Assembly (NCBI RefSeq): GCF_003019035.1
Contig: NZ_CP027447.1
Length of the DNA stretch: 64,000 bases
Direction: 5' to 3' (one strand)
From: Escherichia coli
GTDB taxonomy: Bacteria; Pseudomonadota; Gammaproteobacteria; Enterobacterales; Enterobacteriaceae
Every line of letters starts with the position of its first letter. The first letter of the stretch is position 1. Below, in pieces: positions 4,980 to 45,494 of this stretch. The translations under genes and the position numbers were made by a program. The notes beneath the pieces were generated by a model, which saw only the letters and a list, made by a program, of their open reading frames with translations, did no database searches and was not told where the DNA came from.

Positions 4980-5699
4980 TTATAACTTACCCAGTTTAGT
5001 GCGTAACCGTTTAATGGCCTGACTGTGTAACTGACTGACCCGCGATTCCCCGACCTCCAGCACCGCGCCAATCTCTTTGAGATTCAGCTCTTCCTGGTAA
5101 TAGAGGGTTAATACCAGTTTTTCGCGCTCCGGCAACGTTTCGATAGCTTCCATCACCCGCTGGCGCAGATTACTGTCCAGCAGTTGTTGTAGCGGGTTTT
5201 CTCGCTGATGATCATCAGTAACCAGTTCGATGCTATCGCCGTGCTCTTCGCGCCACTCATCGTAGGAGAAGAGCTGGCTGTTATTGGTGTCGAGCAACAT
5301 TTGGCGATAATCGGCAATATCGATCCCTAAACGTTCCGCAACCTCAGTTTCCGTGGCGTTGCGGCCAAGTTCCTGCTCCAGTTGCCCTATTGCCTGTGCC
5401 ACTTCACGCGCGTTGCGTCGCACGCTGCGCGGCACCCAGTCACGGCTGCGAAGTTCATCCAGCATAGCGCCACGGATACGCTGCACTGCGTAAGTTGTAA
5501 ATGCCGTTCCTTGTAGGGCGTCATAGCGTTCGACGGCATTAAGTAACCCAATGCCGCCCGCCTGTAGCAGATCGTCAAGTTCCACGCTCGCGGGCAGTCG
5601 AACCTGCAGGCGCAATGCTTCGTGACGCACCAGCGGGACATAACGCTGCCACAGCGAGTGTTTATCCATTACACCTTCAGCGGTATAGAGTGAATTCAC
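4980..5699 (-). CDS. fliA: RNA polymerase sigma-28 factor FliA
   Basis: 239 aa sigma-70-family protein recognised as FliA. Confidence 0.95.
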   Translation of the reverse strand: MNSLYTAEGVMDKHSLWQRYVPLVRHEALRLQVRLPASVELDDLLQAGGIGLLNAVERYDALQGTAFTTYAVQRIRGAMLDELRSRDWVPRSVRRNAREVAQAIGQLEQELGRNATETEVAERLGIDIADYRQMLLDTNNSQLFSYDEWREEHGDSIELVTDDHQRENPLQQLLDSNLRQRVMEAIETLPEREKLVLTLYYQEELNLKEIGAVLEVGESRVSQLHSQAIKRLRTKLGKL

Positions 5700-5821
5700 G
5701 ATAAACAGCCCTGCGTTATATGAGTTATCGGCATGATTATCCGTTTCTGCAGGGTTTTTAATCGGACGATTAGTGGGTGAAATGAGGGGTTATTTGGGGG
5801 TTATCGGTAAATTGCGGACAG

Positions 5822-5844
5822 AAAAAACCCCGCCGGTGGCGGGG
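5822..5844 (-). terminator. intrinsic terminator ending the fliC transcript
   Basis: GC hairpin ccccgccggtggcgggg followed by a T-run on the minus strand. Confidence 0.6.
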
Positions 5845-5876
5845 AAGCACGTTGCTGACAAATTACCATTCATGTT

Positions 5877-5977
<101 letters not shown>

Positions 5978-6018
5978 TTTGGCGTTGCCGTCAGTCTCAG
6001 TTAATCAGGTTACGACGA

Positions 6019-7299
6019 TTAACCCTGCAGCAGAGACAGAACCTGCTGCGGTACCTGGTTAGCTTTGGACAGCACGGAGTTACCTGCCTGCTGGATGATC
6101 TGCGCTTTCGACATGTTGGACACTTCGGTCGCATAGTCGGCGTCCTGAATACGGGACTGCGCTTCGGACAGGTTGGTAGTGGTGTTGTTCAGGTTGGTGA
6201 CTGCGGAATCCAGACGGTTTTGAACGGCACCGAGGGAGGAGCGGAAAGTATCAACCTGTGCAATAGCTTTGTCTAAAAGTGCCAGTGGATCAGCAGTGGA
6301 AGCCCCAGTAAATTCATCAGCCGTATCCAGATCAATGGTCTGAGCAATATCGGTTGGTGCAGCAGTGGACTGGTTTTTTACACCATCTGTAATTTCATAA
6401 TTCTTACCCTGAACGGTAGCGAAACCAACGGCCTCTCCGTCAGAATTAGCAGCAACTTTAATCAACGTATCATCTTTGGTAGCGCCGGTAATATCACCGC
6501 CTGAATAAGTAATATCCGTTTTATTAAGAGTTACAGTCCCGTCATCTGCAACAGATGCAGCGTAATTATCACTACCATAGCTAACAACATAGTTCTCAGT
6601 TGCCGCACCATCTTTGTCTAAGATATTGTGCAACGTTAAAGAACTTGCATTAACCTTTTGCCCCAAAGCAGTACCAATATCTGTTGCTGCTGCATCCAGA
6701 TCCACTTTAACTGGCGCGGCTGAACCATCGCCGACCTGCGTCACTGTATCGCTTAATTTTAGCGCCCCACCGGCAACACTAAAACCACTTAAACCAAGGG
6801 CAGAAGAGTCTATTTTCTGCAAATCGATAGAGATGGTCTGCCCATCATTCGCGCCAACCTGAATATTCAGAGAACCGTTTTTAGCCAGCACGTTCACGCC
6901 GTTGAACTGGGTCTGACCAGAGACACGATCGATTTCAGCCAAGCGGGATTTGATTTCGTCCTGGATTGAAGACAGGTCGGAATCAGAGTTGGTACCAGTG
7001 GTTGCCTGCACAGTCAATTCACGAACACGCTGCAGGTTGTTGTTGATTTCAGACAGTGCGCCTTCAGTGGTCTGCGCCAGAGAGATACCGTCGTTGGCGT
7101 TACGTGCGGCCTGAGTCAGACCTTTGATGTTAGAAGTGAAGCGGTTAGCAATCGCCTGGCCCGCAGCGTCATCTTTAGCGCTGTTAATGCGCAGACCAGA
7201 AGAGAGGCGCTCGATAGAAGTCGACAGCGCAGACTGGTTTTTGTTGATGTTGTTCTGAGTGATCAGCGAGAGGCTGTTGGTATTAATGACTTGTGCCAT
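6019..7299 (-). CDS. fliC: flagellin
   Basis: conserved flagellin N terminus MAQVINTNSLSLITQNN and C terminus SKANQVPQQVLSLLQG with a divergent central domain; 426 aa from ATG at 7299 (ORF-track start 7320 is TTG). Confidence 0.95.
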   Translation of the reverse strand: MAQVINTNSLSLITQNNINKNQSALSTSIERLSSGLRINSAKDDAAGQAIANRFTSNIKGLTQAARNANDGISLAQTTEGALSEINNNLQRVRELTVQATTGTNSDSDLSSIQDEIKSRLAEIDRVSGQTQFNGVNVLAKNGSLNIQVGANDGQTISIDLQKIDSSALGLSGFSVAGGALKLSDTVTQVGDGSAAPVKVDLDAAATDIGTALGQKVNASSLTLHNILDKDGAATENYVVSYGSDNYAASVADDGTVTLNKTDITYSGGDITGATKDDTLIKVAANSDGEAVGFATVQGKNYEITDGVKNQSTAAPTDIAQTIDLDTADEFTGASTADPLALLDKAIAQVDTFRSSLGAVQNRLDSAVTNLNNTTTNLSEAQSRIQDADYATEVSNMSKAQIIQQAGNSVLSKANQVPQQVLSLLQG

Positions 7300-7375
7300 G
7301 ATTTCTTTTCCTGTTTTCAAGTCTACGGTTTAAGTATTGGGCTTCCACCCTTCGGCTTCGTCGCCGTCAACCCTG

Positions 7376-11949: not shown

Positions 11950-13155
11950 ATGTCATGGCAGCAATTCAAACACGCCTGGTTGATTAAATTCTGGGCACCC
12001 ATCCCTGCGGTCATCGCGGCGGGTATTCTCTCCACTTACTATTTTGGCATTACTGGCACCTTTTGGGCTGTCACGGGTGAATTTACCCGTTGGGGCGGTC
12101 AGCTCCTGCAGCTGTTTGGCGTCCATGCTGAAGAGTGGGGTTATTTTAAAATTATCCATCTGGAAGGATCGCCATTAACCCGCATCGACGGGATGATGAT
12201 CCTCGGTATGTTTGGCGGCTGCTTTGCCGCAGCGCTGTGGGCCAACAATGTCAAACTACGCATGCCGCGCAGCCGTATCCGCATTATGCAGGCCATCATT
12301 GGCGGCATTATCGCCGGTTTTGGCGCGCGTCTGGCAATGGGCTGTAACCTGGCGGCGTTCTTTACCGGCATTCCTCAGTTCTCGCTGCATGCCTGGTTCT
12401 TTGCCATCGCCACTGCCATTGGTTCATGGTTTGGCGCGCGCTTTACCCTGCTGCCCATCTTCCGTATTCCCGTGAAAATGCAGAAAGTTTCTGCCGCCTC
12501 GCCGCTGACGCAAAAACCGGATCAGGCGCGGCGTCGTTTTCGTCTCGGGATGCTGGTCTTTTTCGGCATGCTGGGCTGGGCGCTGCTGACGGCGATGAAC
12601 CAGCCCAAACTGGGGCTGGCAATGCTGTTTGGCGTCGGCTTTGGTTTACTGATTGAACGTGCGCAAATCTGCTTTACTTCGGCGTTCCGCGATATGTGGA
12701 TCACCGGACGTACCCATATGGCGAAAGCAATCATTATCGGTATGGCGGTAAGTGCCATCGGGATCTTCAGTTACGTACAGTTAGGCGTTGAACCCAAAAT
12801 CATGTGGGCAGGACCAAACGCGGTAATTGGTGGTTTACTGTTTGGTTTTGGCATCGTGCTGGCAGGCGGCTGCGAAACCGGCTGGATGTACCGCGCGGTA
12901 GAAGGCCAGGTGCACTACTGGTGGGTCGGTCTGGGCAACGTGATCGGCTCAACGATTCTGGCGTATTACTGGGATGATTTCGCTCCGGCGCTGGCCACCG
13001 ACTGGGACAAAATCAACCTGCTAAAAACCTTTGGTCCGATGGGTGGCCTGCTGGTGACATATTTGCTGTTGTTTGCAGCTCTAATGTTGATTATCGGCTG
13101 GGAAAAACGCTTCTTCCGCCGTGCGGCACCGCAGACTGCTAAGGAGATCGCATGA
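11950..13155 (+). CDS. yedE: YedE/YeeE-family inner membrane transporter (selenium/sulfur-compound related)
   Basis: 401 aa polytopic membrane protein; followed by overlapping yedF. Confidence 0.93.
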   Translation: MSWQQFKHAWLIKFWAPIPAVIAAGILSTYYFGITGTFWAVTGEFTRWGGQLLQLFGVHAEEWGYFKIIHLEGSPLTRIDGMMILGMFGGCFAAALWANNVKLRMPRSRIRIMQAIIGGIIAGFGARLAMGCNLAAFFTGIPQFSLHAWFFAIATAIGSWFGARFTLLPIFRIPVKMQKVSAASPLTQKPDQARRRFRLGMLVFFGMLGWALLTAMNQPKLGLAMLFGVGFGLLIERAQICFTSAFRDMWITGRTHMAKAIIIGMAVSAIGIFSYVQLGVEPKIMWAGPNAVIGGLLFGFGIVLAGGCETGWMYRAVEGQVHYWWVGLGNVIGSTILAYYWDDFAPALATDWDKINLLKTFGPMGGLLVTYLLLFAALMLIIGWEKRFFRRAAPQTAKEIA

Positions 13156-13385
13156 AAAATATCGTTCCTGATTACCGTCTTGATATGGTGGGTGAACCCT
13201 GCCCTTATCCGGCAGTCGCCACCCTTGAGGCGATGCCGCAGTTAAAAAAAGGTGAGATCCTGGAAGTGGTGAGCGACTGTCCGCAGTCGATCAATAATAT
13301 TCCACTGGATGCGCGTAATCACGGCTATACGGTGCTGGATATTCAGCAAGACGGGCCGACCATTCGTTATTTAATTCAGAAGTAA
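13152..13385 (+). CDS. yedF: TusA-like sulfurtransferase family protein
   Basis: 77 aa with CPYP motif; 4-nt overlap with yedE. Confidence 0.93.
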   Translation: MKNIVPDYRLDMVGEPCPYPAVATLEAMPQLKKGEILEVVSDCPQSINNIPLDARNHGYTVLDIQQDGPTIRYLIQK

Positions 13386-13493
13386 TCCCTCATTCCCGCT
13401 GTGGCCCACAGCGGGAACATCGTTACCTCTGTATCACATAGATTTTACCCGCCCCCTCTCCTATTCTTTTCAGTATGATCTCAGGAGGTTTCT

Positions 13494-14162
13494 ATGTGTG
13501 GACGCTTTGCCCAATCCCAAACGCGTGAAGATTACCTTGCGCTTCTCGCGGAAGATATTGAACGCGATATTCCCTATGATCCCGAACCCATTGGCAGATA
13601 CAACGTCGCGCCGGGAACCAAAGTCCTTCTGCTCAGTGAACGTGATGAACACCTTCATTTGGATCCGGTTTTCTGGGGATATGCTCCCGGATGGTGGGAT
13701 AAACCGCCGCTGATTAATGCCCGCGTAGAAACTGCCGCAACCAGTCGCATGTTTAAGCCGCTCTGGCAACATGGTCGGGCAATCTGTTTTGCCGATGGCT
13801 GGTTTGAGTGGAAAAAAGAAGGCGACAAAAAACAGCCTTATTTTATCTATCGCGCTGACGGACAACCTGTTTTTATGGCCGCGATAGGTAGCACACCGTT
13901 TGAGCGTGGTGACGAAGCCGAAGGATTTTTGATCGTCACTGCGGCGGCAGATCAAGGTCTGGTAGATATTCATAACCGCCGCCCGCTGGTACTGTCGCCA
14001 GAAGCTGCACGGGAATGGATGCGGCAAGATATTGGCGGTAAAGAAGCCTCTGAAATCGCTACCAGTGGCTGTGTGCCAGCAAACCAGTTCACCTGGCACC
14101 CGGTATCGCGCGCGGTGGGTAATGTCAAAAACCAGGGCGCGGAGTTAATTCAACCTGTTTGA
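13494..14162 (+). CDS. yedK: SOS-response-associated peptidase (abasic-site processing)
   Basis: 222 aa starting MCGRFAQ, SRAP family with catalytic Cys2. Confidence 0.93.
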   Translation: MCGRFAQSQTREDYLALLAEDIERDIPYDPEPIGRYNVAPGTKVLLLSERDEHLHLDPVFWGYAPGWWDKPPLINARVETAATSRMFKPLWQHGRAICFADGWFEWKKEGDKKQPYFIYRADGQPVFMAAIGSTPFERGDEAEGFLIVTAAADQGLVDIHNRRPLVLSPEAAREWMRQDIGGKEASEIATSGCVPANQFTWHPVSRAVGNVKNQGAELIQPV

Positions 14163-14272
14163 TAAGCCTGGAGATTATTGATCAACAATACTGCGTCATA
14201 AGAAATCTCTATTAGACAAAGATTTCAGTACCTGTTGGCATATTGCAAAAATAATACCAATACGGAATCGTC

Positions 14273-14752
14273 ATGTTCACGATTAAAACAGATGATCTCA
14301 CCCATCCAGCAGTGCAAGCATTAGTGGCTTACCATATTTCCGGCATGCTGCAGCAGTCTCCCCCCGAAAGCAGTCATGCTTTAGATGTGCAAAAATTACG
14401 TAACCCGACAGTGACATTCTGGTCAGTATGGGAAGGCGAACAACTCGCAGGAATTGGTGCGCTGAAGTTGCTGGATGATAAACATGGCGAGCTGAAATCA
14501 ATGCGTACCGCGCCTAATTATTTACGTCGTGGTGTCGCCAGTCTGATTTTACGCCACATTTTGCAGGTCGCCCATGACAGATGCCTTCATCGCCTGAGCT
14601 TAGAAACGGGTACACAGGCTGGATTTACGGCCTGCCATCAACTTTATTTGAAGCATGGTTTCGTTGATTGCGAACCGTTTGCTGATTATCAACTTGATCC
14701 ACACAGTCGATTTTTGTCATTGACGCTATGCGAAAATAATGAATTGCCATGA
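14273..14752 (+). CDS. yedL: GNAT-family N-acetyltransferase
   Basis: 159 aa acetyltransferase fold. Confidence 0.9.
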   Translation: MFTIKTDDLTHPAVQALVAYHISGMLQQSPPESSHALDVQKLRNPTVTFWSVWEGEQLAGIGALKLLDDKHGELKSMRTAPNYLRRGVASLILRHILQVAHDRCLHRLSLETGTQAGFTACHQLYLKHGFVDCEPFADYQLDPHSRFLSLTLCENNELP

Positions 14753-15169
14753 GCCAGACGCAGCACATTCTTGCATTCGACGAGCTGCGCCTTTATTTAT
14801 TATCAGCCGCAAATGTCTTGTCCTTAGACGCTCTTTCCACATGCGCCACAAGAAACCTCTATTCCAGTGACACAATTATGCCTGATTATTTCCCTAGCCC
14901 GGAATATGAATAAAAACATCAAATAAGATGAAATTATCAAAATATTAATGTTGCGTCTGTGGTCGTAACAACAACCGACCTGGTGATGCGTGTTAAAGGA
15001 GACACTCTGATGTTCAGGGGGGTTATCACGTATACAGATCGTGGATGGCAGAAAACTTTCAGAATCAGGTTTCCATTTTAAACCAGAAATTGAGTGAGTT
15101 TGCCCCATCAATGCCCCACGCTGTGAGTTTGGATGTCATTAAACAAGCACAATCAACACGTAACACAAC

Positions 15170-15484
15170 CTACACCTGCATGCTCATCACTTCCTGATAC
15201 GCCGCTACCAGCTTATTACGCACCTGAATCCCCATTTGCATAGAAACTGAGGCTTTTTGCATATCGGTCATCACATCGTTTAGCGCCACGCCGGGCTCAC
15301 CGAGGGTGAATTTTTCTGCCTGGGTACGGGCGGCTGTTTGTGTATCGCTTATGCGATCGAGCGCGGCGTGCAGCTGCCAGGCAAAACTAATGGTCGGTTG
15401 CGGCAGTGATTCCTGCGCACGCGCACTCATCGCCGTGGTCTGTAACTGGCTGATAACCCCTTCAATCCCCTGTATCGCTGACAT
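15170..15484 (-). CDS. fliE: flagellar hook-basal body protein FliE
   Basis: ORF trimmed to [14 protein letters not shown], 104 aa. Confidence 0.93.
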
Positions 15485-15698
15485 TTTCATCTCCCGGATA
15501 ATTTCTGGTAGCAAAGCCTACCAGTAAGTCAATAAGACAAAGGCGCTAAATAGCAACAAAAAAACGGGTTTATTGGCGGATAGAAAAAAACGAAAGCACA
15601 AATAATGGGAGCGTCAATTTTTCGAGTTTGCTGACCCGGGAGTGAGTCTTGTTCCACTTTGCCAATAACGCCGTCCATAATCAGCCACGAGGTGCGCG
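15485..15698. promoter_or_regulatory. divergent fliE / fliF class-2 flagellar promoter region
   Basis: inferred from divergent gene arrangement and known FlhDC regulation; no motif mapped. Confidence 0.45.
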
Positions 15699-19023
<3,325 letters not shown>

Positions 19024-44538: not shown

Positions 44539-45087
44539 ATTATGTCTGTAGAATAAAACTGAGAAAACGGCGAACAATAAATACACAACTCACCAATACA
44601 GACTGGCTGCGCCAATGTCTCCAGGAGCAAGTCATCTGTCATGGTAAAGCTAACCAGAAATATAGGTTAATTTTGGTATTTAAACCTTTTTTACTTGTTA
44701 GTATGATACAAAGGCTTTCAAAAAAGCTGGGAAATTCAACAACTCTTGGAAATTATGGACTTTGTCCCGCGGCTTTAATCTGACGGCCGCGTTCCTTTTT
44801 TTGCTCAATTATTGACCCCTTCTCTACGCAACTTCAGTTCCCACCACCAACTTTGCGGCAGCTTTGTAGGATCAATGTCTAAAAGAATAATGGTGACCGA
44901 TAAGAAAACGACTGAATAATTGCAGATTTTCGCTCGAAACCTTCCTGTCAGATCCATAGCGAATCAAGTGCTGAATGTCACAGTATCGAACAGAAAACAG
45001 TGACGATCTAACCCTTCAAGAATATTCTACGATTGTTCTGTTTAGGAAAAGCAAGGCGGGAAGTCGGGAGATAAGTCATTGATAAAG

Positions 45088-45149
45088 TGGCGGAGAGAGG
45101 GGGATTTGAACCCCCGGTAGAGTTGCCCCTACTCCGGTTTTCGAGACCG
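45088..45149 (-). other. 3-prime 62 nt of tRNA-Ser(CGA) (serU-type): prophage att junction
   Basis: minus strand reads CGGTCTCGAAAACCGGAGTAGGGGCAACTCTACCGGGGGTTCAAATCCCCCTCTCTCCGCCA (anticodon loop to CCA end); tRNA 5-prime half absent, match stops at 45150. Confidence 0.8.
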
Positions 45150-45494
45150 ATGATACAGAGTCGAAAAATCAAAGAGTTAAAAATTTTTCTTGGAATAAAT
45201 GTCTTAAAATCGTACACGAAAAATCAATGAATTACATAAATTAAAGAAGAATATTCCAAGCCTTCTTAAGTCCACCACCTGTTTTCAGGTGTCATTCAGA
45301 CGTGATTTGCCCCATATTGGGAAAGCACGCTTTTTTCTCAGCTTATTCCGTTTTGCCTGTGTGTTGAATAATTCCACTGCAGTTATATAAAATCGGTAAC
45401 GGCTGGAAATCATTCAATACTCGCACTATCGGAAGTTCACCAGCCAACCGCAGCACGTTCTTGCATACGACGTGCTGCGGCATAATCCCAATGA

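Follow-up and report, generated by a model that had tools for sequence, protein, structure and literature searches.

The 417-bp spacer between yedL and fliE in this Escherichia coli window, by which we mean the whole 64,000-nucleotide stretch of DNA that was analyzed, is best read as a composite prophage scar that lacks one gene and not as an empty site, a reading to which we assign a probability of about 0.8. The right third (~14995-15189) is the decayed left junction (attL) of a lambdoid or P22-like prophage that used a lambda-type tyrosine integrase to enter a 19-nt core, made up of the last codons and the stop of fliE. Of that prophage, nothing survives but the 49 terminal codons of the integrase gene and the short piece that separates this gene from the core. 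The middle (14825-14994) was presumably left after the loss of a 1.2-kb yedN/espR leucine-rich-repeat effector block together with 80 bp upstream, a loss that would have joined the 3' flank of the gene to its orphaned, AT-rich upstream segment. The left 72 bp (14753-14824) accompany yedL; among them is one copy of a palindromic repeat that is dispersed in the genome. On this evidence, nothing in the spacer would need a function beyond providing the fliE stop codon, the fliE 3' flank, and a usable attB. The coordinates of all features are collected in Table 1.

Table 1. Features of the yedF-fliF region and related elements elsewhere in the window
Feature	Position	Strand	Description
yedE	11950-13155		
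yedF	13152-13385		
yedK	13494-14162		
Left direct repeat	14192-14213		22 nt, TGCGTCATAAGAAATCTCTATT; brackets the yedL unit
yedL	14273-14752	+	Left flank, intact; GNAT acetyltransferase gene, 159-aa ORF
Palindrome copy A	14759-14789		Imperfect hairpin; starts 6 nt after the yedL stop
95-aa ORF	14824-15111	-	TTG start; spans the probable deletion junction, antisense to the integrase remnant
Shared spacer	14825-14891		Present in all alleles; 3' flank of yedN/espR in espR+ strains
Right direct repeat	14842-14863		22 nt, TGCGCCACAAGAAACCTCTATT; brackets the yedL unit
espR junction	14888-14896		K-12 has 1,212 extra bp here; probable deletion scar
AT-rich orphan segment	14897-14994		G+C ~0.40; lies 80-180 bp upstream of the espR/yedN start in espR+ strains
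intG remnant	15003-15149	+	Lambda-type tyrosine integrase, 49 terminal codons (residues 386-434 of 434)
23-codon ORF	15010-15081	+	AAGGAG at 14997-15002; +1 frame of the integrase C terminus
Proximal P' arm	15150-15170		Phage DNA between integrase stop and core; aligns to the integrase 3' flank in attP and in the UTAK-1 lysogen
att core	15171-15189		19 nt; last two bases of the fliE stop plus coding bases (V-M-S-M-Q-V*)
Crossover CATCA	15185-15189		From the attP/attL/attR alignment
fliE	15170-15484	-	Right flank; 3' end from the phage side of the junction
fliF	15699-17357		
Palindrome copy B	45449-45479		28/31 bases identical to copy A

The spacer occupies positions 14753-15169, the fliE stop codon beginning at 15170 on the minus strand. 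An earlier sequence-only reading of the window had estimated its length at ~420 bp, close to the 417 bp measured, and had described copy A of a palindrome, an AT-rich stretch, a 23-codon ORF preceded by AAGGAG, and a 95-aa minus-strand ORF, all of which were found at the positions claimed. It had also put yedN, yedM, and intG at this place in K-12. The RefSeq record of MG1655 bears this out for two of them, listing yedL, a yedN pseudogene (1,129 bp, minus strand), an intG pseudogene, and fliE in this order; yedM is no longer in the current record and was likewise placed between yedL and fliE by a 2016 paper (PMC5122947). The K-12 spacer measures 1,620 bp, which disposes of the concern that K-12 might be equally short. 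A composition scan gave a G+C content of ~0.40 across 14650-15100. Alignment to K-12 by blastn produced two blocks, the left one pairing window 14200-14891 with positions 5528-6219 of the K-12 locus L001 (96.8% identity) and the right one pairing window 14888-15700 with L001 7432-8231 (93.1%). The K-12 intG region falls on the retained side of the junction at 14888-14896, and therefore the window still has this region.

The stretch of the window from yedL to fliF was unusually divergent from K-12 (93% DNA identity). Its FliE carries a tryptophan at position 35 (15380-15382), where K-12, other Escherichia, and Citrobacter have glycine, and an A16T substitution (15437-15439); both changes are also present in strain CFSAN061771.

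The conclusion that the spacer holds no island remnant, drawn in the sequence-only reading, is contradicted by the intG integrase remnant and by phage-derived DNA that reaches the last codons of fliE. The closest match of the remnant was the integrase of phage IdasGreatGrand (PP925829), with 82% protein identity and an E value of 5.6e-19 in a tblastn search of the window. Conversely, the translated remnant matched the C terminus of the annotated IdasGreatGrand integrase among 50,697 phage records (E 9e-19). At the DNA level, the phage was 87% identical over window 14995-15189, a match that overruns the integrase stop of the phage by 37 bp and enters fliE by 20 bp. Just ahead of the matched codons there is an in-frame TAA, and the former integrase stop is now CAA.

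The intact 434-aa integrase comprises an Arm-DNA-bind_2 and a Phage_integrase domain (PF00589), the catalytic domain spanning residues 203-396 according to Pfam. The window has kept the last 11 residues of the catalytic domain and the C-terminal tail. A complete integrase frame with arm-binding, core-binding, and catalytic domains is absent from the window, and 49 of the 434 codons remain. Pfam searches with the remnant alone and with K-12 IntG returned non-significant matches only; the remnant goes unrecognized because it is too short, overlapping the catalytic domain by 11 residues. Judging by what is left of the frame, the remnant is a pseudogene fragment and not a gene, and PGAP labels the equivalent stretch in genomes with the short junction "integrase, incomplete."

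The 3' remnant of the integrase was found in 5,159 of 5,426 complete E. coli genomes. A near-complete xis-int pair occurred in eight of the 5,426, six of which have it annotated next to fliE. We also observed that the motif TTTGCCCCAT(N)ATGCCCCAC at the integrase 3' end (window 15096-15119) recurs in the P arm of the phage (L004 2798-2822), and that TTTGCCCCAT is present near the end of the tRNA-Ser prophage of the window (45306-45315). The motif may be an arm-type binding site of the integrase, or its recurrence may be due to chance.

We mapped the attachment site by aligning the phage attP, the attL and attR of the E. coli UTAK-1 lysogen, K-12, and the window. All five sequences are alike up to CATCA and then diverge, either into fliE or into the phage P arm. 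A marker within a serine codon (GA in the phage, CT in the host) segregates with the fliE side in attL and with the remnant side in attR. This segregation, together with the divergence after CATCA, places the exchange in or next to the crossover sequence. The 19-nt block TACACCTGCATGGACATCA is identical in the IdasGreatGrand attP and in the empty site of Citrobacter amalonaticus; the window differs from attP at two of the 19 core positions, both in the serine codon, and the core is identical in the window and K-12.

The reverse complement of the phage attP encodes ...MSMQV*, the end of FliE. The phage therefore brings its own copy of the last codons of fliE, leaving FliE intact, and the protein is full length in the window and in lysogens. 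A blastn search of 14700-15000 with the phage att region revealed no degenerate second copy of the fliE end or of the phage P arm beyond the integrase 3' end. By eye, a weak resemblance to a second att junction was seen at 14838-14851.

Intact prophages indicate that the site still works. In E. coli UTAK-1, a P22-like prophage of 38.7 kb lies intact between fliE and an old intG remnant, and intact prophages occupy the fliE site in five more E. coli genomes and in 11 species representatives. That a few E. coli strains have prophages with this type of integrase here shows, as far as genome sequences go, that the last codons of fliE are still usable as an attachment site. For the serine codon third from the fliE end (15182-15184), the window and K-12 have AGC, as do strain E1V33 and one Pseudenterobacter lysogen; phage IdasGreatGrand has TCN, which is also found in Citrobacter, E. 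whittamii, and E. albertii. The change from AGC to TCC is synonymous, and AGC and TCN are two mutational steps apart. The alternation has the look of alleles replaced by recombination at the phage att site, not of point mutation.

To see what unoccupied sites look like, we used FliE as a query against species-representative genomes, which yielded 80 loci, and aligned empty and occupied sites in 19 species. In 16 of the 80 loci, among them many Citrobacter and other Enterobacteriaceae, yedF lies within ~50-200 bp of fliE. Homology between the window and three empty Citrobacter loci breaks off at the stop codon of fliE (15167-15171) and picks up again at that of yedF (13384-13386), and the gap between the two stops in those loci is 50-90 bp. 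An empty site is thus fliE followed by yedF, and therefore yedK, yedL, and the 417 bp are all extra DNA in the window. Non-phage DNA directly after the fliE stop would characterize an empty site; in the window this position is taken by phage-type sequence.

Eleven of the 80 loci (from Citrobacter, Enterobacter, Kosakonia, and Pseudenterobacter) have an intact integrase and excisionase directly after fliE. A phage-type flank follows fliE in every Escherichia representative retrieved, namely E. albertii, E. whittamii, E1V33, and two divergent genomes labeled "E. coli," and the cargo beyond this flank varies among them. From these comparisons, the fliE-yedF interval is, in all appearance, a cargo hotspot across the genus Escherichia. 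In other Escherichia lineages (L009, L012, and L024; 5313-8400), different small cargo genes lie between fliE and yedF, whose putative products resemble YagU, DUF1398, and PerC proteins by reading of the ORF translations; one of these lineages carries a yedL only 80% identical to that of the window. Strain EC190486 (NZ_CP143092; L006 1-3647) has emrE, ybcL, and ybcM with IS2 and IS200 fragments adjoining the integrase scar and fliE. This block, whose genes belong to the DLP12 prophage in K-12, replaces yedL and yedK. Many genomes belong to the same class, whose match to the spacer is confined to its last 148 bp.

The middle of the spacer differs from K-12 by a single large indel. The 1,212-bp block of K-12 consists of the yedN/espR coding sequence and 80 bp upstream of its start. 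On one side of the junction, the alignment of the 14825-14891 segment to L001 ends at 6219, where the yedN stop is still 4 bp away, and strains EC-10 and 1303 match from 14825; on the other, the AT-rich segment aligns to L001 from 7432, the yedN start being at 7352. The AT-rich segment showed no homology to phage or to other Escherichia species. A tblastn search of the whole 64-kb window with the UTAK-1 EspR, which carries DUF5503, detected no EspR homologue at an E value of 1e-3 or below.

The espR-less junction is present in 1,146 of the 5,426 complete E. coli genomes, and the K-12-type junction upstream of espR in 1,419. The exact allele of the window (yedL+, espR-less) was counted with a 201-bp probe in 148 genomes, 88 of which are at least 99% identical to the window. 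Ninety genomes reached 95% identity or higher with this probe, all of them espR-less, and no espR+ genome was seen with flanks matching the haplotype of the window at 97% or above. A count of 482 genomes was not used; it joined pieces up to 1,214 bp apart and may merge K-12-type matches, with their 1,212-bp gap. About 1,000 other espR-less genomes are also without yedL, such as EC-10 and 1303, in which yedK is followed by 392 bp and then fliE. The flanks of the alleles differ by 7-10%, and therefore the polymorphism is either old or has been reshuffled by recombination, which blurs the history of the alleles.

Comparison of these alleles suggests that espR was probably lost by deletion in the lineage of the window and not gained by insertion elsewhere. 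The 1,212-bp block bears no signature of a mobile element, espR+ alleles occur in the distantly related K-12, O157:H7, ST69, and UTAK-1, and the 98 bp kept at 14897-14994 are, in espR+ strains, the distal part of the region upstream of espR. The weak microhomology at the breakpoint speaks against a deletion. The opposite polarity, in which the short spacer is the older state and ancestors of K-12, O157, and other strains acquired the yedN/espR block by a later insertion, seems unlikely to us, yet it deserves some weight. None of the outgroups among the 80 species-representative loci, be they Escherichia or other genera, has espR near fliE; the short junction is widespread, its flanks in the 1,146 genomes differing by up to ~9%, which argues for an old age; and the breakpoint offers no clear repeat of the kind that a slippage deletion would use. 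However, no mechanism for an insertion is visible, the block having neither insertion-sequence ends nor a target duplication, an att site, or a phage homologue. The spread of espR+ alleles over several distantly related strains also speaks against it, and loss of a single gene by deletion is commoner than gain. Searching the 50,697-record phage collection by tblastn likewise yielded no EspR homologue. With neither an outgroup espR nor a phage EspR homologue, espR is therefore not tied to the ancient prophage, and a later gain could still account for it.

We then considered whether the spacer might be functional in its own right, through a 23-codon peptide, a 95-aa minus-strand protein, or a small RNA, and found this very improbable. 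What speaks for it is the AAGGAG located 7 nt before the ATG at 15010, along with a 23-codon frame that is open in K-12 and in the phage too. This frame is, however, merely the +1 frame of the conserved integrase C terminus. The AAGGAG motif occurs only in the window and EC-10 among the loci compared; its place is taken by AAATGAG or AAATGGG in most of the rest, K-12, O157, and the phage among them. In the phage, its position falls within the Met384 codon (ATG) of the integrase, and strain 1303 has a 1-nt deletion between the motif position and the ATG of the ORF. In espR+ alleles, the 95-aa ORF is interrupted by 1.2 kb and therefore cannot exist. Pfam returned nothing significant for either ORF (best E value for the 95-aa ORF, 0.24), an Rfam scan of 14500-15400 gave no match at E values up to 1, and a consensus scan of 14600-15300 detected neither promoters nor terminators. 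Taken at the level of their frames, the 23-codon ORF is apparently an out-of-frame by-product inside the remnant and the 95-aa ORF a chance ORF, and neither is a plausible gene.

On the left side of the spacer, the segment 14753-14824 (72 bp, including copy A) travels with yedL. The yedL product matched Acetyltransf_1 in Pfam (E 1.1e-13) and aligns to K-12 yedL. A repeat search identified the pair of 22-nt direct repeats around the yedL unit, with 86% identity and a spacing of 650 bp. Alleles without yedL are of two types: UTAK-1 and Ecol_545 have a single hybrid copy of the repeat, and EC-10 and 1303 have the junction 14221|14825 and keep both copies. Two kinds of yedL-less junction imply that at least two separate events affected yedL, which thus behaves as a small cassette that has undergone two or more losses or gains. 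Neither yedL nor copy A was found as phage cargo in the 50,697 phage records. Over the matched stretch, each of the 23 closest genomes exceeds the window by one base. A base-by-base comparison, made with CFSAN061771 alone, traced this base to an additional C in the C-run of yedL at 14354-14359, and PGAP calls the yedL of that strain frameshifted. A genuine frameshift shared by the clade, a reversion, or a sequencing difference in the homopolymer could each explain the C-run.

Copy A matched only itself in a 35-nt pattern search allowing up to three mismatches; copy B required blastn-short, which paired the two within the window at an E value of 9e-5. Copy A is conserved after yedL in K-12 and O157 and lies inside the segment that both types of yedL-less allele are missing. 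Folding gave it no gain in stability over shuffled sequence (z 0.56). A T-rich run follows it and its stem is mismatched in the window, the K-12 stem being better; the consensus scan reported no terminator at this place. Copy B is located 15 nt downstream of a prophage tail-fiber-assembly (tfa) gene of the window, and one K-12 copy of the element again adjoins tfa pseudogenes. A 49-nt element built on copy B is present in 5,414 of the 5,426 E. coli genomes, at a median of four and up to 13 places per genome, amounting to roughly 23,000 copies. The multiple copies beside tfa genes indicate that the family of copy A is a dispersed prophage-associated repeat and therefore not the att core of this site. 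Copy B also lies ~300 bp inside the prophage end that abuts the tRNA-Ser gene (45440-45488; about 44900-45150). The number of elements appears to rise with the load of lambdoid prophages, the O157 strains listed having eight to nine copies.

Two roles were considered for copy A and rejected: that of the att core, which the sequence-only reading had put forward for checking and which lies inside fliE, ~400 bp away, and that of an indel boundary, from which it is separated by ~100 bp, being positioned within the yedL segment to the left of the espR junction. The view of the spacer as an unoccupied or cleanly deleted att site without island remnant, possibly marked by copy A, is right about the shortness of the spacer and the absence of yedN, the largest K-12 feature, but is otherwise scarcely tenable, given an integrase remnant still in place, true empty sites that look different in having fliE directly followed by yedF, and a copy A that comes and goes with yedL and belongs to a dispersed repeat with a median of four places per genome.

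Beyond the composite scar itself, a wider scenario can be offered tentatively, at somewhat less than even odds. The end of fliE would be a live att site across many genera for one family of lambdoid integrases, and the intG scar of E. coli would still act as that site. Cycles of integration and decay would have stacked yedK, yedL, espR, and the different cargo of other Escherichia between yedF and fliE, swapping the terminal codons of fliE on the way, and the whole of yedK-yedL-yedN-intG, beyond intG itself, would be an islet built by prophages. Swapping of terminal codons, if true, would explain the AGC/TCN serine alternation.

For annotation, the point is that a short yedL-fliE spacer does not imply an untouched site. 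In all of the Escherichia examined, the integrase fragment comes from phage, and so does the stop codon of fliE. Phages can use the 3' end of fliE for attachment in E. coli and its relatives. Between yedF and fliE lies a multiallelic hotspot in which the effector-like espR/yedN is present in some lineages and absent from others, a point to bear in mind when genome surveys score espR3/espR4 as "virulence genes." The locus and the remnant are already annotated in K-12 and by PGAP, and the variation is ordinary strain polymorphism, of little significance for biology at large. The att core inside fliE is a tidy detail that follows a well-known pattern; our search of the accessible literature found no paper describing fliE as an attachment site and one incidental description of the K-12 gene order.

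Among known systems, the nearest is K-12 itself, whose intG (b1936) and yedN (b4495) occupy the same locus and include the same integrase remnant; the start of intG is marked "cryptic prophage PR-G" in RefSeq. The window differs from K-12 in being without the 1,212-bp yedN block, in not sharing an 11-bp deletion that K-12 has at the former integrase stop, and in the in-frame TAA that precedes the matched codons of its remnant. The espR3-espR4 locus of O157:H7 has the same flanks, spacer segments, and fliE-adjacent integrase remnant. It differs in carrying two intact espR genes, encoding leucine-rich-repeat type III effectors, in a tandem duplication, whereas the window has none. The repeated unit there consists of part of yedL, espR, and the integrase remnant, joined at the equivalent of window 15161|14421, which gives the order yedL, espR3, integrase remnant, partial yedL, espR4, integrase remnant, fliE.

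Phage 21 and e14 are temperate phages that integrate in the 3' end of a gene, icd, and supply a replacement copy. The fliE system resembles them in having the core in the last codons of its target, the integrase beside attP, and the protein sequence (MSMQV*) preserved. It is unlike them in its target, in replacing only ~6 codons, and in that the window retains nothing but the decayed junction. The closest intact relatives of the remnant are the integrase of IdasGreatGrand and the related prophage of UTAK-1; the phage has the intact 434-aa integrase and an attP that contains the fliE end, whereas the window keeps 49 codons.
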